Below, in pieces: positions 9,971 through 64,000 of a stretch of 64,000 nt of DNA. Each line of letters begins with the position of its first letter. Positions within the stretch are counted from its first letter, which is position 1. Where the stretch lies: NCBI GenBank assembly GCA_964016885.1, contig OZ024741.1, positions 315,146,001 to 315,210,000 of the forward strand, given 5' to 3'. The notes beneath the pieces are model-generated. The model was not told where the DNA came from. It worked only from the letters and a program-made list of their open reading frames with translations, and made no database searches. A program made the position numbers and the translations under genes. The stretch is from Eledone cirrhosa (lineage: Eukaryota).

Positions 9971-9973
9971 ATT

Positions 9974-10166: not shown

Positions 10167-10169
10167 CTT

Positions 10170-23700: not shown

Positions 23701-23992
23701 GTCCAGCACCACCGACTTACCTTCTGGGTCCAGGAATATGGCCCGTATGGCGAGATCGAAGCCTCTCTGAAAAAGCACAGCAACCCCCCCCCCCCCTATC
23801 CTGGACGGCTGGGAGATGCGTATACATCGTAGCCGCCGATGATCGGTGCGAAGGTTCGTGCTTCGGAGATTCTGGTCTCGCTGATTGGCACCACATCTAT
23901 GTTTAGTGACCTGAAGTCGTTGAGCAGGTGACCATGCTTCCGAGATAACCCAGGCCACGTGCATTTATGCTGCCTCTTCTAAGTACGGCCAT
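20797..23992 (-). pseudogene. Tx1 ORF2 remnant, type B
   Basis: Start MAVLRRGSINARGL, with RQGCPLSS, SAYADDVT and ENFRPITLLN motifs. Several small deletions and frameshifts. Confidence 0.9.
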
Positions 23993-24024
23993 GTTGGATG
24001 AGGAACGTGGCAAGTGAGAAAGGA

Positions 24025-25713
24025 TCACTTATCTTGATCGTGTGGGGAAGGGACAGTATAACCGTACCCTCGGCTGGTCAAGTGTGCCTCCAAGACGAAA
24101 TCTTTGTAGATTCTTTTGGAGAGTGACCCCCTGAAATCCCCAACTGCGTTAGGGAATATTTGTTTTAATTGTTTGTAGTTTTCGAGTTCAATTTCTACAA
24201 TGTTAATGTTTTTTTGGTAATGTTCTTGGTGTTGGTGGTGTGTGGTAATTTACGTCTGAAATATGGATGTTGTGTTTTATGTGTTCCATTAGTCATTGGT
24301 GTGCAATGATTATGGCTGTGTACTTTTGGGGGGAGGGGTGGTTTAGTTGCTGTTTTCTTGTTGTTGCTGTTGTGTATGTGCGGTTTGTTGTGTTTGTGAT
24401 GTTGGTGTTTTTGATGATGCTGGTGGTAGTGTGGTTGTTGTTGGTGGTGATGGTGATTTTGGTGGTTTTGCTGCTAGTCTCCTTGCAGTCTTTATTCTTC
24501 TTTCTTTGCCTTCGCTTTTTGGGGGGAGGAGCTGTCGTGTTCTGTCGTTTTTTTTGTTGTTGTTGTTAACCGCTTTGCACTCCTCAGCCGCCTCATACTC
24601 CATGTCCGACTGTGAGAGTTTGGGGAGGGGTATGAGTTCTACCCTCCCATTTGTCTTTGTTGTTGTTGGTGGTGGTGGAGGAGCCTGGTTTTCCGCTCCT
24701 GGCACAGGTGCAGCTAGTGCATCTGTTTATGTTGCTGCAACTGCCGTCGCTGTTTTTGTTGTCCGTGTCTTTCTTGTGGGTGTCACGGACGTTGTCTTCC
24801 TATTCTCTGTAGAAGCTCCCGACATTTTCGCAGACTACTCTGTTTCTGATGGCAGCGGTACCGGGGTTGGAACGAGGGTGGCCTTGGCCTTTGTTATTTT
24901 CTGTGGTCAGAAAGCTCTGAGGTGAGACTTTGATACACAGTTCAAGCATTTTGGGCGCCTTCCTTCAACAGATATGGGAAGTTGGGAACCATTCCCGAGG
25001 TCTACTACGTTGGGAATAGCGCTGATGCAGTCTTGGTCGGTTTGGATTAGCATCTCCATTCCAATACCGGACCAGTCCTCTCTCTCCAACTTCTGTACCT
25101 ACAGAATAGTTGTTCTTTCTTCGATGCCCACAAGAACAGACACGACCAGCCAAGGAACAGGTACGTAGAGCGGGACATGGGTTACCCTGACCTTTGCAGT
25201 TTTTTCCCCGCAGTAAAACGGGACTAACGTTATGTCATCACCCCGTAGGCTCCTCAGTGAGTGAGATTTTGCTTCCTGGGTGGTAGCAAAAAGGACTTCC
25301 ACAGTAGCATATTTATTGCCACGGGTGATGTGGGTTTTCCGTGTCCACACAGTTCCCAAGGCCTTCTGGATTTGGGCATCCGAGGCTCTCTCCACACGAG
25401 GGGATTTCGTGGCAATCGTGAGGTACGACACTGGGCGTCGCTCTTGTTCCACCAGGAAGTCGATTGGTGGTTTCAAGGACATTGAAAATTCAGTTCTGGT
25501 TACCATGTGTCTTGCGACCGCCGTCTCCTCCTCTGTGACCAGGACTGTTTCTACGTTGCGAGCCTCCTTTGTAATAGAGGTGGTCTCTTTTTCAGTGGCG
25601 TCATTGTTGCCACCGTTAATGTTGCAAATGCACTTGTTGTTGGTGGTGATGTTGTTGTTGTTAATACTGCTACAAACGGTGTTGTTGGTGTTGCTGCTGC
25701 TGCCGCCGCTACT
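24025..25713 (-). pseudogene. Tx1 ORF1 remnant, type Z (non-satellite part)
   Basis: RVERASDAQIQKALG, KYATVEVLF and CLNCVSKSHLRAF*, with premature stops at 25099 and 24907. Confidence 0.85.
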
Positions 25714-28700
25714 GCTACAACAGATGTTATTGTTAATACTGCCGCTGCTGCTGTTGCTATTGCTACAACAGATGTTATTGTTAATACTGCCGCTGATGCT
25801 GTTGCTACTGCTGCAACAGATGTTATTGTTAATACTGCCGCTGATGCTGTTGCTATTGCTGCAACAGATGTTATTGTTAATACTGCCGCTGATGCTGTTG
25901 CTATTGCTACAACAGATGTTATTGTTAATACTGCCGCTGATGCTGTTGCTATTGCTACAACAGATGTTATTGTTAATACTGCCGCTGATGCTGTTGCTAT
26001 TGCTACCACAGGTGTTATTGTTAATACTGCCGCTGCTGCTGTTGCTATTGCTACAACAGATGTTATTGTTAATACTGCCGCTGCTGCTGTTGCTATTGCT
26101 ACAACAGATGTTATTGTTAATACTGCCGCTGATGCTGTTGCTATTGCTGCAACAGATGTTATTGTTAATACTGCCGCTGATGCTGTTGCTATTGCTACAA
26201 CAGATGTTATTGTTAATACTGCTGCTGATGCTGTTGCTATTGCTACAACAGATGTTATTGTTAATACTGCCGCTGATGCTGTTGCTATTGCTGCAACAGA
26301 GGTTATTTTTAATACTGCCGCCGCTGCTGTTGCTATTGCTACAACATATGTTATTGTTAATACTGCCGCTGATGCTGTTGCTATTGCTACAACAGATGTT
26401 ATTGTTAATACTGCCGCTGATGCTGTTGCTATTGCTACAACAGATGTTATTGTTAATACTGCCGCTGCTGTTGTTGCTATTGCTACAACAGATGTTATTG
26501 TTAATACTGCCGCTGCTGCTGTTGCTACTGCTGCAACAGATGTTATTGTTAATACTGCCGCTGATGATGTTGCTATTGCTGCAACAGATGTTATTGTTAA
26601 TACTGCCGCTGATGCTGTTGCTATTGCTACAACAGATGTTATTGTTAATACTGCCGTTGATGCTGTTGCTATTGCTACAACAGATGTTATTGTTAATACT
26701 GCCGCTGATGCTGTTGCTACTGCTGCAACAGATGTTATTGTTAATACTGCCGCTGATGCTGTTGCTATTGCTACAACAGATGTTATTGTTAATACTGCCG
26801 CTGCTGCTGTTGCTATTGCTACAACAGATGTTATTGTTAGTACTGCCGCTGATGCTGTTGCTATTGCTGCAACAGATGTTATTGTTAATACTGCCGCTGA
26901 TGCTGTTGCTATTGCTACAACAGATGTTATTGTTAATACTGCTGCTGATGCTTTTGCTATTGCTACAACAGATGTTATTGTTAATACTGCGGCTGATGCT
27001 GTTGCTATTGCTGCAACAGAGGTTATTGTTAATACTGCCGCCGCTGCTGTTGCTATTGCTACAACAGATGTTATTGTTAATACTGCCGCTGATGCTGTTG
27101 CTATTGCTACAACAGATGTTATTGTTAATACTGCCGCTGATGCTGATGCTATTGCTACAACAGATGTTATTGTTAATACTGCCGCTGCTGTTGTTGCTAT
27201 TGCTACAACAGATGTTATTGTTAATACTGTCGCTGCTGCTGTTGCTATTGCTACAACAAATGTTATTGTTAATACTGCCGCTGCTGCTGTTGCTATTGCT
27301 ACAACAGATGTTATTGTTAATACTGCCGCTGATGCTGTTGCTATTGCTACAACAGATGTTATTGTTAATACTGCCGCTGATGCTGTTGCTATTGCTACAA
27401 CAGATGTTATTATTAATACCGCCGCTGATGTTGTTGCTATTGCTACCACAGGTGTTATTGTTAATACTGCCGCTGCTGCTGTTGCTATTGCTACAACAGA
27501 TGTTATTGTTAATACTGCCGCTGATGCTGTTGCTACTGCTGCAACAGATGTTATTGTTAATACTGCCGCTGATGCTGTTGCTATTGCTGCAACAGATGTT
27601 ATTGTTAATACTGCCGCTGATGCTGTTGCTATTGCTACAACAGATGTTATTGTTAATACTGCCGCTGCTGCTGTTGCTATTGCTACAACAGATGTTATTG
27701 TTAATACTGCCGCTGATGCTGTTGCTATTGCTGCAACAGATGTTATTGTTAATACTGCCGCTGATGCTGTTGCTATTGCTACAACAGATGTTATTGTTAA
27801 TACTGCTGCTGATGCTGTTGCTATTGCTACAACAGATGTTATTGTTAATACTGCCGCTGATGCTGTTGCTATTGCTGCAACAGAGGTTATTGTTAGTACT
27901 GCCGCCGCTGCTGTTGCTATTGCTACAACAGATGTTATTGTTAATACTGCCGCTGATGCTGTTGCTATTGCTACAACAGATGTTATTGTTAATACTGCCG
28001 CTGATGCTGATGCTATTGCTACAACAGATGTTATTGTTAATACTGCCGCTGCTGTTGTTGCTATTGCTACAACAGATGTTATTGTTAATACTGTCGCTGC
28101 TGCTGTTGCTATTGCTACAACAGATGTTATTGTTAATACTGCCGCTGCTGTTGTTGCAATTGCTACAACAGATGTTATTGTTAATACTGCCGCTGCTGCT
28201 GTTGCTATTGCTACAACAAATGTTATTGTTAATACTGCCGCTGCTGCTGTTGCTATTGCTACAACAGATGTTATTGTTAATACTGCCGCTGATGCTGTTG
28301 CTATTGCTACAACAGATGTTATTGTTAATACTGCCGCTGATGCTGTTGCTATTGCTACAACAGATGTTATTATTAATACTGCCACTGATGTTGTTGCTAT
28401 TGCTACCACAGGTGTTATTGTTAATACTGCCGCTGCTGCTGTTGCTATTGCTACAACAGATGTTATTGTTAATTCTGCCGCTGATGCTGTTGCTACTGCT
28501 GCAACAGATGTTATTGTTAATACTGCCGCTGATGCTGTTGCTATTGCTGCAAAAGATGTTATTGTTAATACTGCCGCTGATGCTGTTGCTATTGCTACAA
28601 CAGATGTTATTGTTAATACTGCCGCTGATGCTGTTGCTATTGCTACAACAGATGTTATTGTTAATACTGCCGCTGATGCTGTTGCTATTGCTACCACAGG

Positions 28701-29068
28701 TGTTATTGTTAATACTGCCGCTGCTGCTGTTGCTATTGCTACAACAGATGTTATTGTTAATACTGCCGCTGCTGCTGTTGCTATTGCTACAACAGATGTT
28801 ATTGTTAATACTGCCGCTGATGCTGTTGCTATTGCTGCAACAGATGTTATTGTTAATACTGCCGCTGCTGCTGTTGCTATTGCTACAACAGATGTTATTG
28901 TTAATACTGCTGCTGATGCTGTTGCTATTGCTACAACAGATGTTATTTTTAATACTGCCGCTGATGCTGTTGCTATTGCTGCAACAGAGGTTATTGTTAA
29001 TACTGCCGCCGCTGCTGTTGCTATTGCTACAACAGATGTTATTGTTAATACTGCCGCTGATGCTGTTA

Positions 29069-31507
29069 CTATTGCTACAACAGATGTTATTGTTAATACT
29101 GCCGCTGATGCTGTTGCTATTGCTACAACAGATGTTATTGTTAATACTGCCGCTGCTGTTGTTGCTATTGCTACAACAGATGCTATTGTTAATACTGCCG
29201 CTGCTGCTGTTGCTGTTGCTACAACAAATGTTATTGTTAATACTGCCGCTGCTGCTGTTGCTATTGCTACAACAGATGTTATTGTTAATACTGCCGCTGA
29301 TGCTGTTGCTATTGCTACAACAGATGTTATTGTTAATACTGCCGCTGATGCTGTTGCTATTTCTACAACAGATGTTATTATTAATACTGCCGCTGATGTT
29401 GTTGCTATTGCTACCACAGGTGTTATTGTTAATACTGCCGCTGCTGCTGTTGCTATTGCTACAACAGATGTTATTGTTAATACTGCCGCTGATGCTGTTG
29501 CTACTGCTGCAACAGATGTTATTGTTAATACTGCCGCTGATGCTGTTGCTATTGCTGCAACAGATGTTATTGTTAATACTGCCGCTGATGCTGTTGCTAT
29601 TGCTACAACAGATGTTATTGTTAATACTGCCGCTGATGCTGTTGCTATTGCTACAACAGATGTTATTGTTAATACTGCCGATGATGCTGTTGCTATTGCT
29701 ACCACAGGTGTTATTGCTAATACTGCCGTTGCTGCTGTTGCTATTGCTACAACAGATGTTATTGTTAATACTGCCGCTGCTGCTGTTGCTATTGCTACAA
29801 CAGATGTTATTGTTAATACTGCCGCTGATGCTGTTGCTATTGCTGCAACAGATGTTATTGTTAATACTGCCGCTGCTGCTTTTGCTATTGCTACAACAGA
29901 TGTTATTGTTAATACTGCTGCTGATGCTGTTGCTATTGCTACAACAGATGTTATTGTTAATACTGCCGCTGATGCTGTTGCTATTGCTACCACAGGTGTT
30001 ATTGCTAATACTGCCGTTGCTGCTGTTGCTATTGCTACAACAGATGTTATTGTTAATACTGCCGCTGATGCTGTTGCTATTGCTACAACAGATGTTATTG
30101 TTAATACTGCCGCTGATGCTGTTGCTATTGCTGCAACAGAGGTTATTGTTAATACTGCCGCCGCTGCTGTTGCTATTGCTACAACAGATGTTATTGTTAA
30201 TACTGCCGCTGATGCTGTTGCTATTGCTACAACAGATGTTATTGTTAATACTGCCGCTGATGCTGTTGCTATTGCTACAACAGATGTTATTGTTAATACT
30301 GCCGCTGATGCTGTTGCTATTGCTACAACAGATGTTATTGTTAATACTGCCGCTGCTGTTGTTGCTATTGCTACAACAGATGCTATTGTTAATACTGCCG
30401 CTGCTGCTGTTGCTGTTGCTACAACAAATGTTATTGTTAATACTGCCGCTGCTGCTGTTGCTATTGCTACAACAGATGTTATTGTTAATACTGCCGCTGA
30501 TGCTGTTGCTATTGCTACAACAGATGTTATTGTTAATACTGCCGCTGATGCTGTTGCTATTTCTACAACAGATGTTATTATTAATACTGCCGCTGATGTT
30601 GTTGCTATTGCTACCACAGGTGTTATTGTTAATACTGCCGCTGCTGCTGTTGCTATTGCTACAACAGATGTTATTGTTAATACTGCCGCTGATGCTGTTG
30701 CTACTGCTGCAACAGATGTTATTGTTAATACTGCCGCTGATGCTGTTGCTATTGCTGCAACAGATGTTATTGTTAATACTGCCGCTGATGCTGTTGCTAT
30801 TGCTACAACAGATGTTATTGTTAATACTGCCGCTGATGCTGTTGCTATTGCTACAACAGATGTTATTGTTAATACTGCCGATGATGCTGTTGCTATTGCT
30901 ACCACAGGTGTTATTGCTAATACTGCCGTTGCTGCTGTTGCTATTGCTACAACAGATGTTATTGTTAATACTGCCGCTGCTGCTGTTGCTATTGCTACAA
31001 CAGATGTTATTGTTAATACTGCCGCTGATGCTGTTGCTATTGCTGCAACAGATGTTATTGTTAATACTGCCGCTGCTGCTTTTGCTATTGCTACAACAGA
31101 TGTTATTGTTAATACTGCTGCTGATGCTGTTGCTATTGCTACAACAGATGTTATTGTTAATACTGCCGCTGATGCTGTTGCTATTGCTACCACAGGTGTT
31201 ATTGCTAATACTGCCGTTGCTGCTGTTGCTATTGCTACAACAGATGTTATTGTTAATACTGCCGCTGATGCTGTTGCTATTGCTACAACAGATGTTATTG
31301 TTAATACTGCCGCTGATGCTGTTGCTATTGCTGCAACAGAGGTTATTGTTAATACTGCCGCCGCTGCTGTTGCTATTGCTACAACAGATGTTATTGTTAA
31401 TACTGCCGCTGATGCTGTTGCTATTGCTACAACAGATGTTATTGTTAATACTGCCGCTGATGCTGTTGCTATTGCTACAACAGATGTTATTGTTAATACT
31501 GCCGCTG
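29069..31507. repeat. 1200-bp (25-unit) tandem duplication within the satellite
   Basis: Lines 29101-30300 match 30301-31500, including the rare variants atttctaca and gctgttgctacaacaaat. Confidence 0.9.
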
Positions 31508-34500
31508 CTGTTGTTGCTATTGCTACAACAGATGTTATTGTTAATACTGCCGCTGCTGCTGTTGCTATTGCTACAACAAATGTTATTGTTAATACTGCCG
31601 CTGCTGCTGTTGCTATTGCTACAACAGATGTTATTGTTAATACTGCCGCTGATGCTGTTGCTATTGCTACAACAGATGTTATTGTTAATACTGCCGCTGA
31701 TGCTGTGGCTATTGCTACAACAGATGTTATTATTAATACTGCCGCTGATGTTGTTGCTATTGCTACCACAGGTGTTATTGTTAATACTGCCGCTGCTGCT
31801 GTTGTTATTGCTACAACAGATATTATTGTTAATACTGCCGCTGATGTTGTTGCTATTGCTACCACAGGTATTATTGTTAATACTGCCGCTGATGCTGTTG
31901 CTATTGCTACAACAGATGTTATTGTTAATACTGCCGCTGATGCTGTTGCTATTGCTACAACAGATGTTATTGTTAATACTGCCGCTGATGCTGTTGCTAT
32001 TGCTACAACAGATGTTATTGTTAATACTGCCGCTGCTGCTGTTGCTATTGCTGCAAAAGAGGTTATTGTTAATACTGCCGCCGCTGCTGTTGCTATTGCT
32101 ACAACAGATGTTATTGTTAATACTGCCGATGATGCTGTTGCTATTGCTACAACAGATGTTATTGTTAATACTGCCGCTGATGCTGTTGCTATTGCTGCAA
32201 CAGAGGTTATTGTTAATACTGCCGCTGATGCTGTTGCTATTGCTACAACAGATGTTATTGTTAATAATGCCGCTGCTGTTGTTGCTATTGCTACAACAGA
32301 TGTTATTGTTAATACTGCCGCTGATGCTGTTGCTATTGCTACAACAGATGTTATTATTAATACTGCCGCTGATGCTGTTGCTATTGCTACAACAAATGTT
32401 ATTGTTAATACTGCCGCTGCTGCTGTTGCTATTGCTACAACAGATGTTATTGTTAATACTGCCGCTGATGCTGTTGCTATTGCTACAACAGATGTTATTG
32501 TTAATACTGCCGCTGATGCTGTTGCTATTGCTACAACAGATGTTATTATTAATACTGCCGCTGATGTTGTTGCTATTGCTACCACAGGTGTTATTGTTAA
32601 TACTGCCGCTGCTGCTGTTGCTATTGCTACAACAGATGTTATTGTTAATACTGGCGCTGCTCTTGTTGCTATTGCTACAACAGATGTTATTGTTAATACT
32701 GCCGCTGATGCTGTTGCTATTGCTACAACAGATGTTATTATTAATACTGCCGCTGATGCTGTTGCTATTGCTACAACAGATGTTATTATTAATACTGCCG
32801 CTGATGTTGTTGCTATTGCTACCACAGGTGTTATTGTTAATACTGCCGCTGCTGCTGTTGCTATTGCTACAACAGATGTTATTGTTAATACTGGCGCTGC
32901 TCTTGTTGCTATTGCTACAACAGATGTTATTGTTAATACTGCCGCTGATGCTGTTGCTATTGCTACAACAGATGTTATTGTTAATACTGCCGCTGATGCT
33001 GTTGCTATTGCTACAACAGATGTTATTATTAATACTGCCGCTGATGTTGTTGCTATTGCTACCACAGGTGTTATTGTTAATACTGCCGCTGCTGCTGTTG
33101 CTATTGCTACAACAGATGTTATTGTTAATACTGGCGCTGCTCTTGTTGCTATTGCTACAACAGATGTTATTGTTAATACAGCCGCTGATGCTGTTGCTAT
33201 TGCTACAACAGATGTTATTATTAATACTGCCGCTGATGTTGTTGCTATTGCTACCACAGGTGTTATTGTTAATACTGCCGCTGCTGCTGTTGTTATTGCT
33301 ACAACAGATGTTATTGTTAATACTGCCGCTGCTGCTGTTGCTATTGCTACCACAGGTGTTATTGTTAATACTGCCGCTGCTGCTGTTGCTATTGCTACCA
33401 CAGGTGTTATTGTTAATACTGCCGCTGCTGCTGTTGCTATTGCTACCACAGGTGTTATTGTTAATACTGCCGCTGATGCTGTTGCTATTGCTACAACAGA
33501 TGTTATTGTTAATACTGCCGCTGCTGCTGTTGCTATTGCTACCACAGGTGTTATTGTTAATACTGCCGCTGCTGCTGTTGCTATTGCTACCACACGTGTT
33601 ATTGTTAATACTGCCGCTGCTGCTGTTGCTATTGCTACCACAGGTGTTATTGTTAATACTGCCGCTGCTGCTGTTGCTATTGCTACCACAGGTGTTATTG
33701 TTAATACTGCCGCTGATGCTGTTGCTATTGCTACAACAGATGTTATTGTTAATACTGCCGCTGATGCTGTTGCTATTGCTACAACAGATGTTATTGTTAA
33801 TACTGCCGCTGATGCTGTTGCTATTGCTACAACAGATGTTATTGTTAATACTGCCGCTGATGCTGTTGCTATTGCTACAACAGATGTTATTGTTAATACT
33901 GACGCTGATGCTGTTGCTATTGCTACCACAGGTGTTATTGTTAATACTGCCGCTGCTGCTGTTGCTATTGCTACAACAGATGTTATTGTTAATACTGCCG
34001 CTGATGCTGTTGCTATTGCTACAACAGATGTTATTGTTAATACTGCCGCTGCTGCTGTTGTTATTGCTACAACAGATGTTATTGTTAATACTGCCGCTGC
34101 TGCTGTTGTTATTGCTACAACAGATGTTATTGTTAATACTGCCGCTGCTGCTGTTGTTATTGCTACAACAGATGTTATTGTTAATACTGCCGCTGATGCT
34201 GTTGCTATTGCTACAACAGATGTTATTGTTAATACTGCCGCTGCTGCTGTTGTTATTGCTACAACAGATGTTATTGTTAATACTGCCGCTGCTGCTGTTG
34301 TTATTGCTACAACAGATGTTATTGTTAATACTGCCGCTGCTGCTGTTGTTATTGCTACAACAGATGTTATTGTTAATACTGCCGCTGCTGCTGTTGTTAT
34401 TGCTACAACAGATGTTATTGTTAATACTGCCGCTGATGCTGTTGCTATTGCTACAACAGATGTTATTGTTAATACTGCCGCTGATGCTGTTGCTATTGCT

Positions 34501-37500
34501 ACCACAGGTGTTATTGTTAATACTGCCGCTGCTGCTGTTGTTATTGCTACAACAGATGTTATTGTTAATACTGCCGCTGATGCTGTTGTTATTGCTACAA
34601 CAGATGTTATTGTTAATACTGCCGCTGCTGCTGTTGTTATTGCTACAACAGATGTTATTGTTAATACTGCCGCTGATGCTGTTGCTATTGCTACAACAGA
34701 TGTTATTATTAATACTGCCCCTGATGTTGTTGCTATTGCTACCACAGGTATTATTGTTAATACTGCCGCTGATGCTGTTGTTATTGCTACAACAGATGTT
34801 ATTGATAATACTGCCGCTGCTGCTGTTGTTATTGCTACAACAGATGTTATTGTTAATACTGCCGCTGCTGCTGTTGCTATTGCTACCACAGGTGTTATTG
34901 TTAAAACTGCCGCTGCTGCTGTTGCTATTGCTACAACAGATGTTATTGTTAATACTGCCGCTGCTGCTGTTGCTATTGCTACAACAGATGTTATTGTTAA
35001 TACTGCCGCTGATGTTGTTGCTATTGCTACCACAGATGTTATTGTTAATACTGCCGCTGCTGCTGTTGCTATTGCTACAAAAGAAATTATTGTTAATACT
35101 GCCGCTGATGCTGTTGCTATTGCTACAACAGATGTTATTGTTAATACTGCCGCTGATGCTGTTGCTATTGCTACAACAGATGTTATTATTAATACTGCCG
35201 CTGATGTTGTTGCTATTGCTACAACAAATGTTACTGTTAATACTGCCGCTGCTGCTGTTGCTATTGCTGCAACAGATGTTATTGTTAATACTGCTGCTGC
35301 TGCTGTTGCTATTGCTACAACAGATGTTATTGTTAATACTGCCGCTGCTGCTGTTGCTATTGCTACAATAGATGTTATTGTTAATACTGCCGCTGCTGCT
35401 GTTGTTATTGCTACAACAGATATTATTGTTAATACTGCCGCTGATGTTGTTGCTATTGCTACAACAGATGTTATTGTTAATACTGCCACTGATGCTCTTG
35501 CTATTGCTACAACAGATGCTATTGTTAATACTGCCGCTGATGCTGTTGCTATTGCTACCACAGGTGTTATTGTTAATACTGCCGCTGCTGCTGTTGTTAT
35601 TGCTACAACAGATGTTATTGTTAATACTGCTGCTGATGCTATTGCTATTGCTACAAGAGATGTTATTGTTAATACTGCCGCTGCTGCTGTTGCTATTGCT
35701 ACAACAGATGTTATTGTTAATACTGCCGCTGCTGCTGTTGCTATTGCTACAATAGATGTTATTGTTAATATTGCCGCTGCTGCTGTTGTTATTGCTACAA
35801 CAGATATTATTGTTAATACTGCCGCTGATGTTGTTGCTATTGCTACAACAGATGTTATTGTTAATACTGCCGCTGATGCTGTTGCTATTGCTACAACAGT
35901 TGTTATTGTTAATACTGCCGCTGTTGCTGTTGCTATTGCTACCACAGGTGTTATTGTTAATACTGCCGCTGATGCAGTTGCTATTGCTACAACAGATGTT
36001 ATTGTTAATACTGCTGCTGCTGCTGTTGCTATTGCTACCACAGGTGTAATTGTTAATACTGCCGCTGCTGCTGTTGCTATTGCTACCACAGGTGTTATTG
36101 TTAATACTGGCGCTGCTGCTGTTGCTATTGCTACAACAGTTGTTATTGTTAATACTGGCGCTGCTGCTGTTGCTATTGCTACAACAGTTGTTATTGTTAA
36201 TACTGCCGCTGCTGCTGTTGCTATTGCTACAACAGATGTTATTGTTAATACTGCCGCTGCTGCTGTTGCTATTGCTACAACAGTTGTTATTGTTAATACT
36301 GCCGCTGCTGCTGTTGCTATTGCTACCACAGGTGTTATTGTTAATACTGCCGCTGCTGCTGTTGCTATTCCTACAACAGATGTTATTGTTAATACTGCCG
36401 CTGCTGCTGTTGCTATTGCTACAACAGTTGTTATTGTTAATACTGCCGCTGCTGCTGTTGCTATTGCTACCACAGGTGTTATTGTTAATACTGCCGCTGC
36501 TGCTGTTGCTATTGCTACAACAGATGTTATTGTTAATACTGCCGCTGCTGCTGTTGCTATTGCTACAACAGTTGTTATTGTTAATACTGCCGCTGCTGCT
36601 GTTGCTATTGCTACCACAGGTGTTATTGTTAATACTGCCGCTGATGCAGTTGCTATTGCTACAACAGATGTTATTGTTAATACTGCTGCTGCTGCTGTTG
36701 CTATTGCTACCACAGGTGTAATTGTTAATACTGCCGCTGCTGCTGTTGCTATTGCTATAACAGATGTTATTGTTAATACTGCCGCTGCTGCTGTTGCTAT
36801 TGCTGCAACAGATGTTATTGTTAATACTGCCGCTGCTGCTGTTTCTATTGCTGCAACAGATGTTATTGTTAATACTGCTGCTGCTGCTGTTGCTATTGCT
36901 ACCACAGGTGTAATTGTTAATACTGCCGCTGCTGCTGTTGCTATTGCTACCACAGATGTTATTGTTAATACTGCTGCTGCTGCTGTTGCTATTGCTACCA
37001 CAGGTGTAATTGTTAATACTGCCGCTGCTGCTGTTGCTATTGCTACAACAGATGTTATTGTTAATACTGCCGCTGATGCTGTTGCTACTGCTGCAACAGA
37101 TGTTATTGTTAATACTGCCGCTGATGCTGTTGCTATTGCTGCAACAGATGTTATTGTTAATACTGCCGCTGATGCTGTTGCTATTGCTACAACAGATGTT
37201 ATTGTTAATACTGCCGCTGATGATGTTGCTATTGCTACAACAGATGTTATTGTTAATACTGCCGATGATGCTGTTGCTATTGCTACCACAGGTGTTATTG
37301 CTAATACTGCCGTTGCTGCTGTTGCTATTGCTACAACAGATGTTATTGTTAATACTGCCGCTGCTGCTGTTGCTATTGCTACAACAGATGTTATTGTTAA
37401 TACTGCCGCTGATGCTGTTGCTATTGCTGCAACAGATGTTATTGTTAATACTGCCGCTGCTGCTTTTGCTATTGCTACAACAGATGTTATTGTTAATACT

Positions 37501-51570: not shown

Positions 51571-54500
51571 GCTGTTGTTGCTATTGCTACAATAGATGCT
51601 ATTGTTAATACTGCCGCTGATGCAGTTGCTATTGCTACAACAGATGTTATTGTTAATACTGCTGCTGATGCTGTTGCTATTGCTACCACAGGTGTTATTG
51701 TTAATACTGCCGCTGATGCAGTTGCTATTGCTACAACATATATTATTGTTAATACTGCCGCTGATGCTGTTGCTATTGCTACAACAGATGTTATTGTTAA
51801 TACTGCCGCTTGCAGTTGCTATTGCTACAACAGATGTTATTGTTAATACTGCCGCTGCTGATGTTGCTATTGCTACCACAGGTGTTATTGTTAATACTGC
51901 CGCTGCTGCTGTTGCTATTACTACAACAGATGTTATTGTTAATACTGCCGCTGATGCTGTTGCTATTGCTACAACAGATGTTATTGTTAATACTGCCGCT
52001 GCTGCTGTTGCTATTGCTACAACAAATGTTATTGTTAATACTGCCGCTGCTGCTGTTGCTATTGCTACAACAGATGTTATTGTTAATACTGCCGCTGCTG
52101 CTGTTGCTATTGCTACCACACATGTTATTGTTAATACTGCCGCTGCTGTTGTTGCTATTGCTACAACAGATGTTATTGTTAATACTGCCGCTGATGCTGT
52201 TGCTATTGCTACAACAGATGTTATTGTTAATACTGCCGCTGATGCTGTTGCTATTGCTACAACAGATGTTATTGTTAATACTGCCGCTGGTGCTGTTGCT
52301 ATTGCTACCACAGGTGTTATTATTAATACTGCCGCTGCTGCTGTTGCTATTGCTACAACAGATGTTATTGTTAATACTGCCGCTGGTGCTGTTGCTATTG
52401 CTACCACAGGTGTTATTGTTAATACTGCCGCTGATGCTGTTGCTATTGCTGCAACAGATATTATTGTTAATACTGCTGCTGCTGTTGTTGCTATTGCTAC
52501 AACAGATGCTATTGTTAATACTGCCGCTGATGCTGTTGCTATTGCTACAATAGATGCTATTGTTAATACTGCCGCTGATGCTGTTGCTATTGCTACAACA
52601 GATGTTATTGTTAATACTGCCGCTGGTGCTGTTGCTATTGCTACCACAGGTGTTATTATTAATACTGCCGCTGCTGCTGTTGCTATTGCTACCACAGGTG
52701 TTATTGTTAATACTGCCGCTGATGCTGTTGCTATTGCTACAACAGATGCTATTGTTAATACTGCCGTTGAGGCTGTTGCTATTGCTACAACATATGTTAT
52801 TGTTAATACTGCCGCTGGTGCTGTTGCTATTGCTGCAACAGATGTTATTGTTAATACTGCCGCTGATGCTGTTGCTATTGCTACAACAGATGTTATTGTT
52901 AATACTGCCGCTGATGCTGTTGCTATTGCTACAACAGATGTTATTGTTAATACTGCCGCTGATGCTGTTGCTATTGCTACCACAGGTGTTATTATTAATA
53001 CTGCCGCTGCTGCTGTTGCTATTGCTACCACAGGTGTTATTGTTAATACTGCCGCTGGTGCTGTTGCTATTGCTACCACAGGTGTTATTGTTAATACTGC
53101 CGCTGATGCTGTTGCTATTGCTACAACAGATATTATTGTTAATACTGCCGCTGATGCTGTTGCTATTGCTGCAACAGAGGTTATTGTTAATACTGCCGCC
53201 GCTGCTGTTGCTATTGCTACAACAGATGTTATTGTTAATACTGCCGCTGATGCTGTTGCTATTGCTACAACAGATGTTATTGTTAATACTGCCGCTGATG
53301 CTGTTGCTATTGCTACAACAGATGTTATTGTTAATACTGCCGCTGCTGTTGTTGCTATTGCTACAACAGATGTTATTGTTAATACTGCCGCTGCTGCTGT
53401 TGCTATTGCTACAACAAATGTTATTGTTAATACTGCCGCTGCTGCTGTTGCTATTGCTACAGCAGATGTTATTGTTAATACTGCCGCTGCTGCTGTTGCT
53501 ATTGCTACAACAGATGTTATTGTTAATACTTACGCTGATGCTGTTGCTATTGCTACAACAGATGTTATTATTAATACTGCCGCTGCTGCTGTTGCTATTG
53601 CTACAACAGATGTTATTGTTAATACTGCCGCTGATGCTGTTGCTATTGCTACAACAGATGTTATTGTTAATACTGCCGCTGATGTTGTTGCTATTGCTAC
53701 CACAGGTGTTATTGTTAATACTGCCGCTGCTGATGTTGCTATTGCTACAACAGATGTTATTGTTAATACTGCCGCTGCTGCTGTTGCTATTGCTACCACA
53801 GGTGTTATTATTAATACTGCCGCTGCTGCTGTTGCTATTGCTACTACAGGTGTTATTGTTAATACTGCCGCTAATGCTGTTGCTATTGCTACAACAGATA
53901 TTATTGTTAATACTGCCGCTGATGCTGTTGCTATTGCTACAACAGATGTTATTGTTAATACTGCCGCTGCTGTTGTTTCTATTGCTACAACAGATGTTAT
54001 TGTTAATACTGCCGCTGATGCTGTTGCTATTGCTGCAACAGACGTTATTGTTAATACTGCCGCTGATGCTGTTGCTATTGCTACAATAGATGGTATTGTT
54101 AATACTGCCGCTGATGCTGTTGCTATTGCTACCACAGGTGTTATTGTTAATACTGCCGCTGATGCTGTTGCTATTGCTGCAACAGAGGTTATTGTTAATA
54201 CTGCCGCTGCTGCTGTTGCTATTGCTACAACAGATGTTATTGTTATTACTGCCGCTGCTGCTGTTGCTATTGCCACAACAGATATTATTGTTAATACTGC
54301 CGCTGCTGCTGTTGCTATTGCTACAACAAATGTTATTGTTAATACTGCCGCTGCTGCTGTTGCTATTGCTACAGCAGATGTTATTGTTAATACTGCCGCT
54401 GCTGCTGTTGCTATTGCTACAACAGATGTTATTGTTAATACTTACGCTGATGCTGTTGCTATTGCTACAACAGATGTTATTATTAATACTGCCGCTGATG

Positions 54501-57500
54501 CTGTTGCTATTGCTGCAACAGATATTATTGTTAATACTGCCGCTGCTGCTGTTGCTATTGATACAACAGATGTTATTGTTAATACTGCCGCTGCTGCTGT
54601 TGCTATTGCTACCACAGGTGTTATTGTTAATAATGCCGCTGATGCTGTTGTTATTGCTACAACAGATATTATTGTTAATACTGCCGCTGCTGCTGTTGCT
54701 ATTGCTGCAACAGATGTTATTGTTAATACTGCCGCTGCTGCTGTTGCTATTGCTGCAACAGATGTTATTGTTAATACTGCCGCTGATACTGTTGCTATTG
54801 CTACAACAGATGTAATTGTTAATACTGCCGCTGATGCTGTTGCTATTGCTGCAACAGATGTTATTATTAATACTGCCGCTGCTGCTGTTGCAATTGCTAC
54901 AACAGATGTTATTGTTAATACTGCCGCTGATGCTGTTGCTATTGCTACAACAGATGTTATTGTTAATACTGCCGCTGCTGCTGTTGCTATTGCTACCACA
55001 GGTGTTATTGTTAATACTGCCGCTAATGCTGTTGCTATTGCTACAACAGATATTATTGTTAATACTGCCGCTGATGCTGTTGCTATTGCTACAACAGATG
55101 TTATTGTTAATACTGCCGCTGATGCTGTTGCTATTGCTAAAACAGATGTTATTGTTAATACTGCCGCTGATGTTGTTGCTATTGCTACAACAGTTGTTAC
55201 TGTTAATACTGCCGCTGCTGCTGTTGCTATTGCTACCACAGGTGTTATTGTTAATACTGCCGCTGCTGCTGTTGCTATTGCTACAACAGATGTTATTGTT
55301 AATACTGGCGCTGCTGTTGTTGCTATTGCTACAACAGATGTTATTGTTAATACTGCCGCTGCTGCTGTTGCTATTGCTACAACAGATGTTATTGTTAATA
55401 CTGCCGCTGATGCTGTTGCTATTGTTATAACAGATGTTATTGTTAATACTGCCGCTGGTACTGTTGATATTGCTACAACAGATGTTATTGTTAATACTGC
55501 CGATGATGCTGTTGCTATTGTTACAACAGATGTTATTGTTAATACTGCCGCTGATGCTGTTACTATTGCTACAACAGATGTTATTGTTAATACTGCCGCT
55601 GATGCTGTTGCTATTGCTACAACAGATGTTATTGTTAATACTGCCGCTGATGCTGTTGCTATTGCTACAACAGATGTTATTGTTAATACTGCCGCTGATG
55701 CTGTTGCTATTGCTACAACAGATGTTATTGTTAATACTGCCGCTGATGCTGTTGCTATTGCTACCACAGATTTTATTGTTAATACTGCCGCTGCTGCTGT
55801 TGCTATTGCTGCAACTGATGTTATTGTTAATACTGCCGTTGCTGCTGTTGATATTGCTACAACAGATGTTATTGTTAATACTGCCGCTGGTGCTGTTGCT
55901 ATTGCTACAACAGATGTTATTGTTAATACTGCCGCTGATGCTGTTGCTATTGCTACCAAAGGTGTTATTGTAAATACTGCCGCTGATGCTGTTGCTATTG
56001 TTACAACAGATGTTATTGTTAATACTGCCGCTGCTAATGTTGCTATTGCTGCAACAGATGTTATTGTTAATACTGCCGCTGCTGCTGTTGATATTGCTAC
56101 AACAGATGTTATTGTTAATACTGCCGCTGCTGCTGTTGCTATTTCTACCACAGATGGTATTGTTAATACTGCCGCTGCTGCTGTTGCTATTGCTACAACA
56201 AATGTTATTGTTAATACTGCCGCTGCTGCTATTGCTATTGCTACAACAGATGTTATTGTTAATACTGCCGCTGATGCTGTTGCTATTGCTACAACAGATG
56301 TTATTGTTAATACTGCCGCTGCTGTTGTTGCTATTGCTACAACAGATGTTATTGTTAATACTGCCGCTGATGATGTTGCTATTGCTACCACAGGTGTTAT
56401 TGTTAATACTGCCGCTGATGCTGTTGCTATTGCTACAACAGATGCTATTGTTAATACTGCCGCTGATTCTGTTGCTATTGCTACAACAGATGTTATTGTT
56501 AATACTGCCGCTGGTGCTGTTGCTATTGCTACCACAGGTGTTATTGTTAATACTGCCGCTGATGCTGTTGTTATTGCTACAACAGATGTTATTGTTAATA
56601 TTGCCGCTGATGCTGTTGCTATTGCTACAACAGATATTATTGTTAATACTGCCGCTGCTGCTGTTGCTATTGCTACAACAGATGTTATTGTTAATACTGC
56701 CGCTGATGCTGTTGCTATTGCTACAACAGATGTTATTGTTAATACTGCCGCTGATGTTGTTGCTATTGCTACAACAGATGTTATTGTTAATACTGCCGCT
56801 GATGCTGTTGCTATTGCTGCAACAGATGTTATTGTTAATTCTGCCGCTGATGTTGTTGCTATTGCTACAACAGATGTTATTGTTAATACTGCCGCTGATG
56901 CTGTTGCTATTGCTACAACAGATGTTATTGTTAATACTGCCGCTGATGCTGTTGCTATTGCTACAACAGATGTTATTGTTAATACTGCCGCTGATGCTGT
57001 TGCTATTGCTACAACAGATGTTATTATTAATACTGCCGCTACTGCTGTTGCTATTGCTACAACAGATGTTATTGTTAATACTGCAGCTGATGCTGTTGCT
57101 ATTGCTACAACAGATGTTATTGTTAATACTGCCGCTGATGTTGTTGCTATTGCTACCACAGGTGTTATTGTTAATACTGCCGCTGCTGCTGTTGCTATTG
57201 CTACCACAGGTGTTATTGTTAATACTGCCGCTGCTGCTGTTGCTATTGCTACAACAGATGTTATTGTTAATACTGCCGCTGATGCTGTTGCTATTGCTAC
57301 AACAGATATTATTGTTAATACTGCCGCTGATGCTGTTGCTATTGCTACAACAGATGTTATTGTTAATACTGCCGCTGCTGTTGTTTCTATTGCTACAACA
57401 GATGTTATTGTTAATACTGCCGCTGATGCTGTTGCTATTGCTACCACACATGTTATTGTTAATACTGCCGCTGCTGCTATTGCTATTGCTACAACAGATG

Positions 57501-60500
57501 TTATTCTAAAAACTGCCGCTGATGTTGTTGCTATTGCTGCAACAGCTGTTATTGTTAATACTGCTGCTGCTGCTGTTGCAATTGCTACAACAGATGTTAT
57601 TGTTAATACTGCCGCTGCTGCTGTTGCTATTGCTACAATAGATGTTATTGTTAATACTGCCGCTGATGTTGTTGCTATTGCTACAACAGATGTTATTGTT
57701 AATACTGCCGCTGATGCTGTTGCTATTGCTACAACAGATGTTATTGTTAATACTGCCGCTGATGCTGTTGCTATTGCTGCAACAGAAGTTATTGTTAATA
57801 CTGCCGCCGCTGCTGTTGCTATTGCTACAACAGATGTTATGGTTAATACTGCCGCTGATGCTGTTGCTATTGCTACAACAGATGTTATTGTTAATACTGC
57901 CACTGATGCTGTTGCTATTGCTACAACAGATGTTATTGTTAATACTGCCGCTGATGTTGTTGCTATTGCTACAACAGATGTTATTGTTAATACTGCCGCT
58001 GCTGCTGTTGCTATTGCTACAACAAATGTTATTGTTAATACTGCCGCTGCTGCTGTTGCTATTGCTACAACAGATGTTATTGTTAATACTGCCGCTGATG
58101 CTGTTGCTATTGCTACAACAGCTGTTATTATTATTACTGCCGCTGCTGCTGTTGCTATTGCTACAACAGATGTTATTGTTAATACTGCCGCTGATGCTGT
58201 TGCTATTGCTACAACAGATATTATTGTTAATACTGCCGCTGATTCTGTTGCTATTGCTACAACAGCTGTTATTATTATTACTGCCGCTGCTGCTGTTGCT
58301 ATTGCTGCAATAGATGTTATTGTTAATACTGCCGCTGATGTTGTTGCTATTGCTGCAACAGATGTTATTGTTAATACTGCCGCTGCTGCTGTTGCTATTG
58401 CTACAACAGATGTTATTGTTAATACTGCCGTTGCTGCTGTTGCTATTACTACAATAGATGTTATTGTTAATACTGCCGCTGATGCTGTTGCTATTGCTGC
58501 AACAGATGTTATTGTTAATACTGCCGCTGCTGCTGTTGCTATTGCTACAACAGATGTTATTGTTAATACTGCCGCTGATGCTGTTGCTATTGCTACAACA
58601 GATGTTATTATTAATACTGCCGCTACTGCTGTTGCTATTGCTACAACAGATGTTATTGTTAATACTGCAGCTGATGCTGTTGCTATTGCTACAACAGATG
58701 TTATTGTTAATACTGCCGCTGGTGTTGTTGCTATTGCTAGCACAGGTGTTATTGTTAATACCGCCGCTGCTGCTGTTGCTATTGCTACAACATATGTTAT
58801 TGTTAATACTGCCGCTGCTGCTGTTGCTATTGCTACCAGAGGTGTTATTGTTAATACTGCCGCTGATGCTGTTGCTATTGCTACAAGAGATATTATTGTT
58901 AATACTGCCGCTGATGCTGTTGCTATTGCTACAACAGTTGTTATTGTTAATACTGCCGCTGCTGTTGTTTCTATTGCTACAACAGATGTTATTGTTAATA
59001 CTGCCGCTGATGCTGTTGCTATTGCTACCACACATGTTATTGTTAATACTGCCGCTGCTGCTATTGCTATTGCTACAACAGATGTTATTCTAAAAACTGC
59101 CGCTGATGTTGTTGCTATTGCTGCAACAGATGTTATTGTTAATACTGCTGCTGCTGCTGTTGCTATTGCTACAACAGATGTTATTGTTAATACTGCCGCT
59201 GCTGCTGTTGCTATTGCTACAATAGATGTTATTGTTAATACTGCCGCTGATGCTGTTGCTATTGCTGCAACAGATGTTATTGTTAATACTGCCGCTGCTG
59301 CTGTTGCTATTGCTACAACATATGTTATTGTTAATGCTGCCGCTGATGCTGTTGCTATTGCTACAACAGATGTTATTGTTAATACTGCCGCTGATGCTGT
59401 TGCTATTGCTGCAACAGAGGTTATTGTTAATACTGCCGCTGCTGTTGTTGCTATTGCTACAACAGATGTAATTGTTAATACTGCCGCTGCTGCTGTTGCT
59501 ATTGCTACAACAAATGTTATTGTTAATACTGCCGCTGCTGCTGTTGCTATTGCTACAACAGATGTTATTGTTAATACTGCCGCTGATGCTGTTGCTATTG
59601 CTACAACAGATGTTATTGTTAATACTGCCGCTGCTGCTGTTGCTATTGCTGCAACAGATGTTATTGTTAATACTGCTGCTGCTGCTGCTGCTGTTGCTAT
59701 TGCTACAACAGATGTTATTCTTAATACTGCCGCTGCTGCTGTTGCTATTGCTACAATAGATGTTATTGTTAATACTGCCGCTGATGTTGTTGCTATTGCT
59801 GCAACAGATGTTATTGTTAATACTGCCGCTGCTGCTGTTGCTATTGCTACAATAGATGTTATTGTTAATACTGCCGCTGATGCTGTTGCTATTGCTGCAA
59901 CAGATGTTATTGTTAATACTGCCGCTGCTGCTGTTGCTATTGCTACAACAGATGTTATTGTTAATACTGCCGCTGATGATGTTGCTATTGCTGCAACAGA
60001 GGTTATTGTTAATACTGCCGCCGCTGCTGTTGCTATTGCTACAACAGATGTTATGGTTAATACTGCCGCTGATGATGTTGCTGTTGCTACAACAGATGTT
60101 ATTTTTAATACTGCCGCTGAATGCTGTTGCTATTGCTACAACAGATGTTATTGTTAATACTGCCGCTGCTGTTGTTGCTATTGCTACAACAGATGTTATT
60201 GTTAATACTGCCGCTGCTGCTGTTGCTATTGCTACAACAAATCTTATTGTTAATACTGCCGCTGCTGCTGTTGCTATTGCTACAACAGATGTTATTGTTA
60301 ATACTGCCGCTGATGCTGTTGCTATTGCTACAACAGATGTTATTGTTAATACTGCCGCTGCTGCTGTTGCTATTGCTACAACAGATATTATTACTATTAC
60401 TGCCGCTGCTGCTGTTGCTATTGCTACAACAGATGTTATTGTTAATACTGCCGCTGATGCTGTTGCTATTGCTACAACAGATGTTATTGTTAATACTGCC

Positions 60501-63500
60501 GCTGATGTTGTTGCTATTGCTACCACAGGTGTTATTGTTAATACTGCCGCTGCTGCTATGGCTATTGCTACAACAGATGTTATTGTTAACACTGCCGCTG
60601 CTGCTGTTGCTATTGCTACCACAGGTGTTATTGTTAATACTGCCGCTGCTGCTGTTGCTATTGCTACCACAGATGTTATTGTTAAAACTGCCGCTGCTGC
60701 TGTTGCTATTGCTACAACAGATGTTATTGTTAATACTGCTGCTGCTGCTGTTGCTATTGCTACAACAGATGTTATTGTTAATACTGCCGCTGATGCTGTT
60801 GCTATTGCTACAAGAGATTTTATTGTTAATACTGCTGCTGCTGCTGTTGCTATTGCTACAACAGATGTTATTGTTAATACTGCCGCTGCTGCTGTTGCTT
60901 TTGCTACAACAGATGTTATTGTTAATACTGCCGCTGATGCTGTTGCTATTGCTACCACAGGTGTTATTGTTAATACTGCCGCTGATGCTGTTGCTATTGC
61001 TACCAAAGGTGTTATTGTTAATACTGCCGCTGCTGCTGTTGCTATTGCTACAACATATGTTATTGTTAATACTGCCGCTGATGCTGTTGCTATTGCTACA
61101 ACAGATGTTATTGTTAATGCTGCCGCTGATGCTGTTGCTATTGCTACAACAGATGTTATTGTTAATACTGCCGCTGATGCTGTTGCTATTGCTGCAACAG
61201 ATGTTATTGTTAATACTGCCGCTGATGCTGTTGCTATTGCTGCAACAGAGGTTATTGTTAATACTGCCGCCGCCTCTGTTGCTATTGCTACGACAGGTGA
61301 TATTGTTAATACTGCCGCTGCTGCTGTTGCTATTGCTACAACAGATGTTATTGTTCATACTGCCGCTGCTGCTGTTGATATTGCTACAACAGATATTATT
61401 GTTAATACTGCCGTTGATGCTGTTTGTATTGCTACAACAGATGTTATTGTTAATACTGCCGCTGCTGTTGTTGCTATTGCTACAACAGATGTTATTGTTA
61501 ATACTGCCGCTGCTGCTGTTGCAATTGCTACAACAGATGTTATTGTTAATACTGCCGCTGCTGCTGTTGATATTGTTACAACAGATATTATTGTTAATAC
61601 TGCCGTTGATGCTGTTTGTATTGCTACAACAGATGTTATTGTTAATACTGCCGCTGCTGTTGTTGCTATTGCTACAACAGATGTTATTGTTAATACTGCC
61701 GCTGCTGCTGTTGCTTTTGCTACAACAGATGTTATTGTTAATACTGCCGCTGCTGCTGTTGCTATTGCTACAACAGATGCTATTGTTAATACTGCCGCTG
61801 CTGCTGTTGCTATTGCTACAACAGATGTTATTATTAATACTGCCGCTGCTGCTTTTGCTATTGCTACGACAGATGTTATTGTTAATACTGCCACTGCTGC
61901 TGTTGCTATTGCTACCACAGGTGTTATTGTTAATACTGCCGCTGGTGCTGTTGCTATTGCTACAACAGATGTTATTGTTAATACTGCAGCTGCTGTTGCT
62001 ATTGCTACCACAGGTGTTATTGTTAATACTGCCGCTGCTGCTGTTGCTATTGCTACAACAGATGTAATAGTTAATACTACCGCTGATGATGTTGCTATTG
62101 CTACAACAGATGTTATTGTTAATACTGCCGCTGATGCTGTTGCTATTGTTGCAACAGAGTTTATTGTTAATACTGCTGCTGCTGCTATGCTATTGCTACA
62201 ACAGATGATATTGTTAATACTGCCGCTGCTGCTGTTGCTATTGCTACAAAAGATATTATTGTTAATACTGCCGCTGATGCTGTTGCTATTGCTACAACAG
62301 ATGTTACTGTTAATACTGCCGCTGATGCTGTTGCTATTGCTGCAACAGATGTTATTGTTAATACTGCCGCTGCTGCTGTTGCTATTGCTACAACAAATGT
62401 TATTGTTAATACTGCCGCTGCTGGTGTTGCTATTGCTACAACAGATGTTATTGTTAATACTGCCACTGCTGCTGTTGCTATTGCTACCACAGGTGTTATT
62501 GTTAATACTGCCGCTGATGCTGTTGCGATTGCTGCAACAGATGTTATTGTTAATACTGCCGCTGATGCTGTTGCAATTGCTCCCACATGTTTTATTGTTA
62601 ATACTGCCGCTGATGTTGTTGCTATTGCTACAACAGATGTTATTGTTAATACTACCGCTGCTGCTGTTGCTATTGCTACAACAGATGTTATTGTTAATAC
62701 TGCCGCTGCTGCTGTTGCTATTGCTGCAACATATGTTATTGTTAATACTGCCGCTGCTGCTGGTGCTATTGCTACAACGGATGTTATTGTTAATACTGCC
62801 GCTGCTGCTGTTGCTATTGCTACAACATATGTTATTGTTAATACTGCCGCTGCTGCTGTTGATATTGCTACAACAGATGTTATTGTTAATACTGCCGTTT
62901 CTGCTGTTGCTATTGCTGCAACAGATGCTATTGTTAATACTGCCGCTGCTGCTGTTGCTATTGCTACCGCAGATGGTATTGTTAATACTGCCGCTGCTGC
63001 TGTTGCTATTGCTACAACAGATTTTATTGTTAATACTGCCGCTGATGCTGTTGCTATTGCTACAACAGATGTTATTGTTAATACTGCCGCTGCTGCTGTT
63101 GCTATTGCTGCAACAGAATTTATTGTTAATACTGCCGCTGATGCTGTTGCTATTGCTACAACAGATGTTATTGTTAATACTGCCGCTGCTGCTTTTGATA
63201 TTGCTACAACAGATTTTATTGTTAATACTGCCGCTGATGCTGTTGCTATTGCTACAACAGATGTTATTGTTAATACTGCCGCTGATGCTGTTGCTATTGC
63301 TGCAACAGATGTTATTGTTAATACTGCCGCTGTTGCTGTTGCTATTGTTGCAACAGAGGTTATTGTTAATACTTCCGCTGCTGCTGTTGCTATTGCTACA
63401 ACAGATGTTATTGTTAATACTGCCGCTGCTGCTGTTGCTATTGCTACAACAGATATTATTGTTAACACTGCCGCTGATGCTGTTGCTATTGCTGCAACAG

Positions 63501-64000
63501 ATGTTATTGTTAATACTGCCGCTGCTGCTGTTGCTATTGCTACAACAGATGTTATTGTTAATACTGCCGCTGGTGCTGTTGCTATTGCTACAACAGATGT
63601 TCTTGTTAATACTACCGCTGCTGCTGTTGCTATTGCTACAACAGATGTTATTGTTAATACTGCAGCTGCTGCTGTTGCTATTGCTGCAACATATGTTATT
63701 ATTAATACTGCCGCTGCTGCTGGTGCTATTGCTACAACAGATGTTATTGTTAATACTGCCGCCGCTGCTGTTGCTATTGCTACAACATATGTTATTGTTA
63801 ATACTGCCGCTGATGCTGTTGCTATTGCTACAACAGATGTTATTGTTAATACTACCGCTGATGCTGTTGCTATTGCTACAACAGATGTTATTATTAATAC
63901 TGCCGCTGCTGCTGTTGCTATTGCTACAACAGATGTTATTGTTAATACTGCCGCTGATGCTGTTGCTATTGCTACAACAGATGTTATTGTTAATACTGCC

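Follow-up and report, generated by a model that had tools for sequence, protein, structure and literature searches.

A 45-kb tandem array of a LINE's own 48-bp ORF1 motif at a single locus in Eledone cirrhosa

We analyzed a 64,000-nucleotide stretch of the Eledone cirrhosa genome (assembly GCA_964016885.1, contig OZ024741.1, here C2; C2:315146001-315210000), hereafter called the window, in which a 48-bp tandem repeat adjoins the open reading frame 1 (ORF1) core of a long interspersed nuclear element (LINE). We are confident, short of certainty, that one full-length, now dead LINE copy of the L1 group, likely of the Tx1 clade, carries a 45-kb array built from its own 48-bp ORF1 motif and confined to this locus, and that the array likely grew in place, without selection, after the insertion. 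A satellite of more than 38 kb within a LINE ORF1 had been recognized in the first-pass annotation of the window; this was borne out, and the array proved to be longer than seen there (45,270 bp, to extended coordinate 71,012).

The array lies within one full-length LINE copy

Tandem Repeats Finder called a single 48-bp tandem array at 25,708-64,000 of the window, with 797.8 copies and 93% matches. The far side was examined using the next 100 kb of the contig and ten spaced sequence samples; in the extended coordinates, 64,001 is L031:1. The whole array runs from window position 25,695 to 71,012, 7,012 bases past the window end, and contains 943 full units (45.3 kb) plus a terminal unit. Among the 943 units, 935 are exactly 48 bp long and 8 carry indels; EcoRI, HindIII, BamHI and SacI do not cut within the array. 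The in-window part (25,743-64,000, minus strand) continues at C2:315210001-315217012 (locus L031), and the terminal unit (25,695-25,742, minus strand) is of a "B-type" form that is also found in sister copies of the element with a single unit.

Extension of the contig past 64 kb recovered, as the first-pass annotation had anticipated, the other end of the same LINE. Its Ser-rich ORF1 start segment, broken ATG region and 5' untranslated region (UTR) occupy L031:7013-7597 on the minus strand, with the broken ATG region at L031:7386 (71,386 extended, minus strand), the 5' UTR start at 71,597 and (ATT)n beyond it at L031:7598-7612. This 5' flank matches the sisters L054, L056 and L065 at 79-82%. 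On the opposite side of the array, again on the minus strand, the degenerate N/S segment and the conserved ORF1 core extend over 25,099-25,694 and end in a premature in-frame stop (25,099-25,101). They are followed by the remaining ORF1 with a broken zinc-knuckle region (near 24,934-24,954) and the inter-ORF low-complexity segment (23,993-25,098, four stops in the aligned stretch), a decayed ORF2 with endonuclease, reverse transcriptase (RT) and C-terminal zinc-binding regions and many stops and frameshifts (20,791-23,992; RVT_1 at 21,773-22,312), and the 3' UTR with AATAAA and a short (ATT)n tail (20,535-20,790). The host element spans ~51,050 bp, or 5,783 bp with the array removed. In the alignment to L054, the host 5' flank ends at base 2118 and the 3' flank begins at base 2119, and therefore the array sits within one full-length element. 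It is placed exactly between the 5' part of the element and the ORF1 core, where the sisters hold one to five motif copies.

The host copy is dead, as indicated by stops, frameshifts and ~6% private divergence. Starting from its ATG, ORF1 meets a stop after five codons as well as frameshifts, and tblastn with the open stretches of the in-window relatives revealed stops in 7 of 9 aligned stretches, with repeated frame changes in both ORF1 and ORF2. The locus is interstitial (position 315 Mb on the 416-Mb C2).

On the minus strand, the unit reads (SINNNICCSNSNS[I/S]SG)n, and the frame then passes through the degenerate N/S segment into ETVLVTEEE...RVERASDAQIQKALG up to the premature stop. In the commonest unit, read on the plus strand, 16 of 16 triplets start with a purine and 13 of 16 end in T, confirming the counts made earlier. 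The ORF1 frame is open throughout the ORF1-proximal 26.7 kb, from 25,102 to about 51,804. A 46-bp unit at 51,807-51,852 then shifts the register for the first of six changes in all, the ETVLVTEEE frame contains 338 stops farther 5', and the listed 9,476-aa ORF switches register within the array. The unbroken ORF1 frame claimed in the first-pass annotation thus holds through the N/S segment into the ORF1 core, but not through the whole array, with its break at 51.8 kb and eight indel units. The long open frame is expected by chance, because two of the three frames of the unit are open on the coding strand and only 2 of 140 classed single-base changes in the ORF1 frame (four commonest variants excluded) create a stop.

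The unit is an ORF1 motif of the LINE subfamily

Sisters were gathered by the ORF1 core (best 40 of 1,571 candidates), by the 5' flank (best 40 of 126) and by patterns, and 59 distinct sister loci remained for the census after removal of five duplicate loci and the host. The core motif was single in 36 of them, tandem in others (two copies in 5, three in 1 and five in 1) and undetected in 16. The spacings of the tandem copies were multiples of 3 in 11 of 11 cases, ranging from 42 to 60 bp. The motif core is flanked on both sides by (GCA)n, and these tracts matter as flanking microhomology. L004 (C1, near 278,417,200), with five tandem units, and L002, with three, have periods of 48-54 and 45-60 bp and are candidate early-stage expansions. 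One of the 36 single-motif sisters, L124, has a second, non-tandem copy of the core motif 764 bp downstream of the first, past the zinc-knuckle region, where similar SINNN-like codons are present in the in-window relatives.

Two sisters, L056 and L065, contain an A-type unit with the diagnostic second half of the array units, followed by a B-type unit like the last one of the array. The third commonest unit of the array (42 copies) equals the A-type unit of L056 except for the length of the GCA run, and the host shares minority ORF1 letters with both sisters. The unit is thus a Ser/Asn-rich ORF1 motif already fixed in the subfamily, its triplet pattern being the codon pattern of a Ser/Asn/Ile/Cys-rich segment. 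Contrary to the proposal in the first-pass annotation, it was not frozen out of a microsatellite at this locus, since the complex core was already in place. The unit is homologous to a defined internal segment of the element and is present 943 times here versus 1-5 times in the sisters, as expected of a transposon-derived satellite.

The in-window relatives carry short AAC/AGC tracts at the homologous place, as noted earlier, but they do not serve as unexpanded controls: the motif was not found in any of the three, even at up to 6 mismatches. The true controls are the sisters dispersed on other contigs.

The array is confined to one locus

An exact 30-mer of the unit gave 407 matches in the 3.0-Gb genome, 407/407 of them inside the window and L031. 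A looser A-type pattern gave 502 matches, 501 of which were inside the array, and the lone outside match was on the strand where L056 bears the motif. The pattern of the terminal B-type form matched 15 times at 13 other loci and not at all in the array. In addition, the unit was absent from the other 19 stretches sampled (the next 100 kb and the ten spaced samples). The satellite was thus not found away from this LINE by these genome searches, which used exact patterns and would miss diverged arrays. A classical satellite occupies several loci and is detached from its parent element; the array was found at one locus within its parent, with the same proviso for arrays that would escape exact patterns.

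The units have diverged without coding constraint

Compared with the commonest letter in each alignment column of 32 sisters, the host ORF1 core is divergent at 6.3% of 719 sites (7 of 39 loci, aligned over <600 bp or not at all, were excluded), and the median terminal branch in the ORF1 tree of the sisters is 0.042. The array units are on average 6.6% from the sister-like unit and 6.0-6.8% from each other. These values suggest that the units have aged like the LINE flanks and trace to a common ancestor at roughly half the age of the copy or earlier. If the Octopus vulgaris rate is applied (Jukes-Cantor distance 0.065 = 18 million years (My); PMC13282606), the insertion would date very roughly to ~17 My ago and the triplication of the large blocks described below to 0.15-0.3 My ago.

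In the ORF1 frame of 397 full-length older units, with the four commonest variants excluded, 77 synonymous and 230 non-synonymous changes were observed, versus 78.9 and 224.7 expected from the base-change rates. No coding constraint is seen in these units. Neither an intact start-to-stop ORF nor purifying selection on the units, the two marks of a coding tandem repeat, was found. The expansion "in frame", to which the first-pass annotation had given weight, is therefore not a meaningful property of an array that lies in a dead host, loses the frame at 51.8 kb and consists of unconstrained units.

The array preserves a record of its growth

The array can be divided into an older and a younger half. 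The older half (51,567-64,000, on to L031:7012, minus strand) contains 117 unique units among 405 and all 8 indel units, versus 24 unique units and no indel among the 538 units of the younger half. Three higher-order blocks were identified on the minus strand: block 1 at 44,174-51,566 (~154 units), block 2 at 36,686-43,982 (152 aligned units, differing from block 1 at 8 bases) and block 3 at 30,638-37,022 (133 aligned units, 13 differences from block 1 and 10 from block 2, the latter in 127 unit pairs). These ~7-kb blocks, of about 130-160 units each, are 0.11-0.20% apart; each has changes of its own, and there are gaps of 1-6 units. The youngest duplication consists of two adjacent 25-unit (1,200-bp) copies with 0 differences (29,102-31,502, minus strand). 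Periods of 4-6, 8, 14, 18 and 25 units were detected in the younger half, and of 49 and 33 units in the older half, where 12 and 8 matches compare with at most 6 after shuffling. Variants in the two unit halves have recombined freely (19C x 43G = 76/78/381/400). This picture is what would be expected if slippage came first and ever larger blocks were then exchanged unequally.

Derived letters are present at both array edges (25,695-28,000 and L031:6700-7037), even in the terminal B-type unit and in the flank before the array, and few parts of the array are as uniform as these edges. The edges of tandem arrays are usually the most diverged.

We propose the following course of events. The source element would already have had two motif copies, A-type plus B-type, as in L056 and L065. 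The (GCA)n runs on either side of the core would have permitted in-register misalignment, and the tandem periods would therefore all be multiples of 3. Since 45 kb is implausibly long for an RNA intermediate and the age of the units parallels that of the flanks, growth would have occurred in chromosomal DNA. Slippage of 1-6 units would have come first, and unequal exchange between sister chromatids or homologues (or break repair), involving 14-50 and then ~130-160 units, would have followed. The array would yield no protein. Unequal exchange is an established model (Smith 1976, as cited in PMC4079207).

Several points weigh against this account. The exchange mechanism is read from structure only. 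Close relatives are over-represented in the sister census, itself a sample, because only the best candidates were scored (e.g. 40 of 1,571). The ORF1 letters of the host are a mosaic, with 8 and 7 diagnostic letters of two subgroups, and in the star-like ORF1 tree the host is not grouped with L056 and L065, from which a 95% node separates it; the source element with two motif copies is thus unproven. Stops created by single-base changes in the ORF1 frame number 0 versus 3.5 expected haplotype occurrences, a weak signal from non-independent counts. The net length change of the array is +6 bases, which leaves both ORF1 halves in one frame, as would occur by chance in 1 of 3 cases. Finally, no read or contig among the 8 of ~19,900 records listed bridged the 5' junction.

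A derived variant, 24T, is present in 751 of 927 units (~81%) and perfects a 6-bp inverted repeat at unit positions 20-40, which 26C strengthens. Folding of the eight commonest units gave -2.4 to -3.0 kcal/mol for the 24G types, which are the ancestral-type units, and -4.3 to -6.4 for the 24T types. The variant may reflect templated quasi-palindrome correction, promotion of slippage, or drift. The idea that the hairpin sets the unit apart was rejected: the folding of two-unit stretches does not surpass that of shuffled sequences (z -0.55 to -1.03). The hairpin-breaking variants 40A and 34A are also common, and the rise of 24T counts as one event, a lead only. An extended hypothesis, which we consider unlikely, is that the family has a built-in satellite seed, namely a complex core between two (GCA)n runs, which duplicates repeatedly in separate copies, and that the runaway copy was triggered by 24G>T perfecting a 6-7-bp hairpin, with 26T>C strengthening it. 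If this were true, the locus would be a natural experiment, dated and furnished with dozens of copies as unexpanded controls, in which a coding low-complexity motif became a macrosatellite with higher-order repeats, and the length of the array would still be changing among living animals.

Alternative explanations

The sequencing data listed comprised three contig sets of one sample and three restriction site-associated DNA sequencing (RAD-seq) runs of other samples, with no RNA run among them; X1, X4, X5 and X6 were aligned to the 5' junction. The RAD-seq runs, being reduced representation, were uninformative, with at most a read or two on array units and 0 across the junction. In run X1, the summed contig depth on ~2.8 units was, per unit, ~2,300x that of one 370-bp flank contig; this is not a copy number, and X1 is possibly the sample of the assembly itself. 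One X1 contig has a joint that skips L031 6987-7598, the short side of the joint comprising just 23 letters. Since none of the listed records spans the 5' junction, the junction, the linkage and the length rest on the assembly.

The array could therefore be real and yet assembled too long, if the assembler concatenated two alleles or duplicated a block; the true allele would then be shorter, e.g. 30-38 kb. Three ~7-kb blocks at 99.8-99.9% identity and a perfect 1.2-kb duplication are structures that assemblers mishandle, and no spanning read is among the records listed. However, all three blocks have private substitutions and unequal unit numbers, for which two haplotypes alone are not a simple source, and the X1 depth, although not a copy number, fits hundreds to thousands of units in order of magnitude. 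We accordingly rate an inflated length as improbable.

The flanks might instead belong to two separate LINE copies that recombined within their motif tracts, with the array marking the rearrangement. The best matches of the 5' flank are in one subgroup and the ORF1 core falls outside the 95% node of that subgroup, as such a chimera would predict. The first three diagnostic sites 3' of the array, however, match the subgroup of the 5' flank, the remaining sites alternate (8 vs 7 overall) as in an intermediate sublineage, and the terminal unit is the B-type of the 5' flank's subgroup, leaving this explanation with a very small probability.

It is just as hard to credit that selection maintains the array, whether for a giant Ser/Asn/Cys-repeat protein or for a structural role (as a heterochromatin seed or a centromere-like element). 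The 26.7 kb of open ORF1 frame, the absence of indels from the 538 young units and the recent large duplications would be compatible with it. Against this, the ORF1 start region has its stop after five codons and its frameshifts, a further in-frame stop lies at 25,099, the ratio of synonymous to non-synonymous changes is neutral, the indel-free part is the recently amplified part, and the array is a single locus at an interstitial position on C2. The giant repeat protein is rejected in view of the broken start, the frame break, the neutral units and the host stops.

That a 5'-truncated LINE of a family targeting simple repeats inserted, within what is a LINE cluster, beside or into a pre-existing satellite has a negligible probability, since the 5' end is present past the array and collinear with the sisters, the unit is the family's own motif, exact patterns found no array elsewhere, and none of the signs named for this case in the first-pass annotation (no Tx1 5' end, no unit in the ORF1s of the family, a satellite common without the LINE) was observed.

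The LINE family and its surroundings

Four LINE copies in the left 25 kb of the window, all minus-strand and decayed, match Exo_endo_phos and/or RVT_1. Every ORF2 match found in 164 kb (window 1-25,000 plus L031-L039) is on one strand, in head-to-tail clusters with (AAT)n tracts and a short interspersed nuclear element (SINE) between them; three tandem ~197-bp copies of the SINE, 89% alike, lie at 9,777-10,355 of the window. The (ATT)n tail of each insertion was likely the target of the next one.

The family has an N-terminal AP-type endonuclease and an RT closest to L1, the features that define the L1 group. The RT piece of the host matches proteins with endonuclease, RT and zf-RVT domains. 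P0007, at 48% to the host piece, matches human L1 ORF2p with an E-value of 9e-69, versus 5e-16 for R2. The ORF2 homologues bear only "hypothetical protein" names, one of them with an organism name (Argonauta hians, 61%), and the database searches otherwise returned generic endonuclease/RT clusters and unnamed ORF1 look-alikes; no named Tx1 reference was among the homologues found by the protein searches. An ORF1 with a gag-like CCHC knuckle is a feature of the Tx1 clade. The in-window relatives have such a knuckle (C-x2-C-x4-H-x4-C), and the host has a stop at its last position. Of the 5' ends of sisters, 25 were located: ATT immediately precedes 14 of them and an (ATT)n-like tract precedes 22; 2 others come after an internal duplication and 1 after (GTT)n. 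The Tx1 label is that of the first-pass annotation, and the placement in the Tx1 clade is likely. Many Tx1 families show a target preference for repeats, defined as >20% of flanks (PMC4494074), and the present family lies above this threshold.

The Ser-rich N-terminal segment of ORF1 is duplicated in a subgroup of the family that includes the host (L031:7020-7250; L052-L067), and some copies have a duplicated 5' start. L012, L013 and L014 have the same ORF1 core with a different 5' UTR and an Asn/Thr-rich N-terminus, an apparent swapping of 5' ends between subfamilies.

Comparison with known systems

The origins of satellites are usually reconstructed after the parent sequence is gone. Here, one genome retains the two halves of the parent, the ancestral-type unit (42 copies) and sisters with 1, 2, 3 and 5 units, together with an internal clock (~6% since the insertion and 0.1-0.2% among the latest large blocks) and a record of duplications in nested form. 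The step from a minisatellite to a higher-order array should be directly measurable in population long reads. The array is not a new kind of system and shows no sign of function. No description of it was found in open-access papers and preprints at the level of titles and abstracts; the unit could still be present in repeat libraries published as supplements.

Monomers derived from retrotransposon segments are reportedly known from an L1-derived cetacean satellite (Kapitonov 1998) and from plant satellites originating in the 3' UTRs of long terminal repeat (LTR) retrotransposons (Macas 2009). These are said to be mature, dispersed and detached from the parent, unlike the array described here.

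Satellites from transposon segments have been reported for LTR elements, LINEs, SINEs and DNA transposons (PMC10702118). The SINE-derived satellites of squamates (sSat) resemble the present array in that a sub-segment of a non-LTR retroelement was duplicated in tandem in place, with a few to hundreds of units per locus and alternating locus-specific unit subvariants (PMC10702118). In contrast to sSat, the parent here is a LINE, the unit comes from ORF1 coding sequence and only one locus reached size, with 943 units versus 320 in the longest cobra locus quoted (PMC10702118), and with multi-kb higher-order blocks. Similarly, the TIR-220 repeats of Tetris in Drosophila virilis are transposon-internal tandem repeats that seed kb-size satellite-like arrays, with unequal crossing-over as the proposed engine (PMC4079207). 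Whereas those are terminal repeats of a DNA transposon, with a 220-bp unit and heterochromatin-favoured arrays (PMC4079207), the present case is a 48-bp ORF1 motif in a single array with both parental flanks intact. The Tx1 families Kibi and Koshi also insert in simple repeats, (TC)n and (TTC)n, respectively, the target here being (ATT)n; they are not known to have an internal satellite (PMC4494074). Taken together, the array is an unusually complete example of the known transposon-derived satellites, distinguished by its origin in ORF1 coding sequence, its position at one locus between intact parental flanks, and its size.

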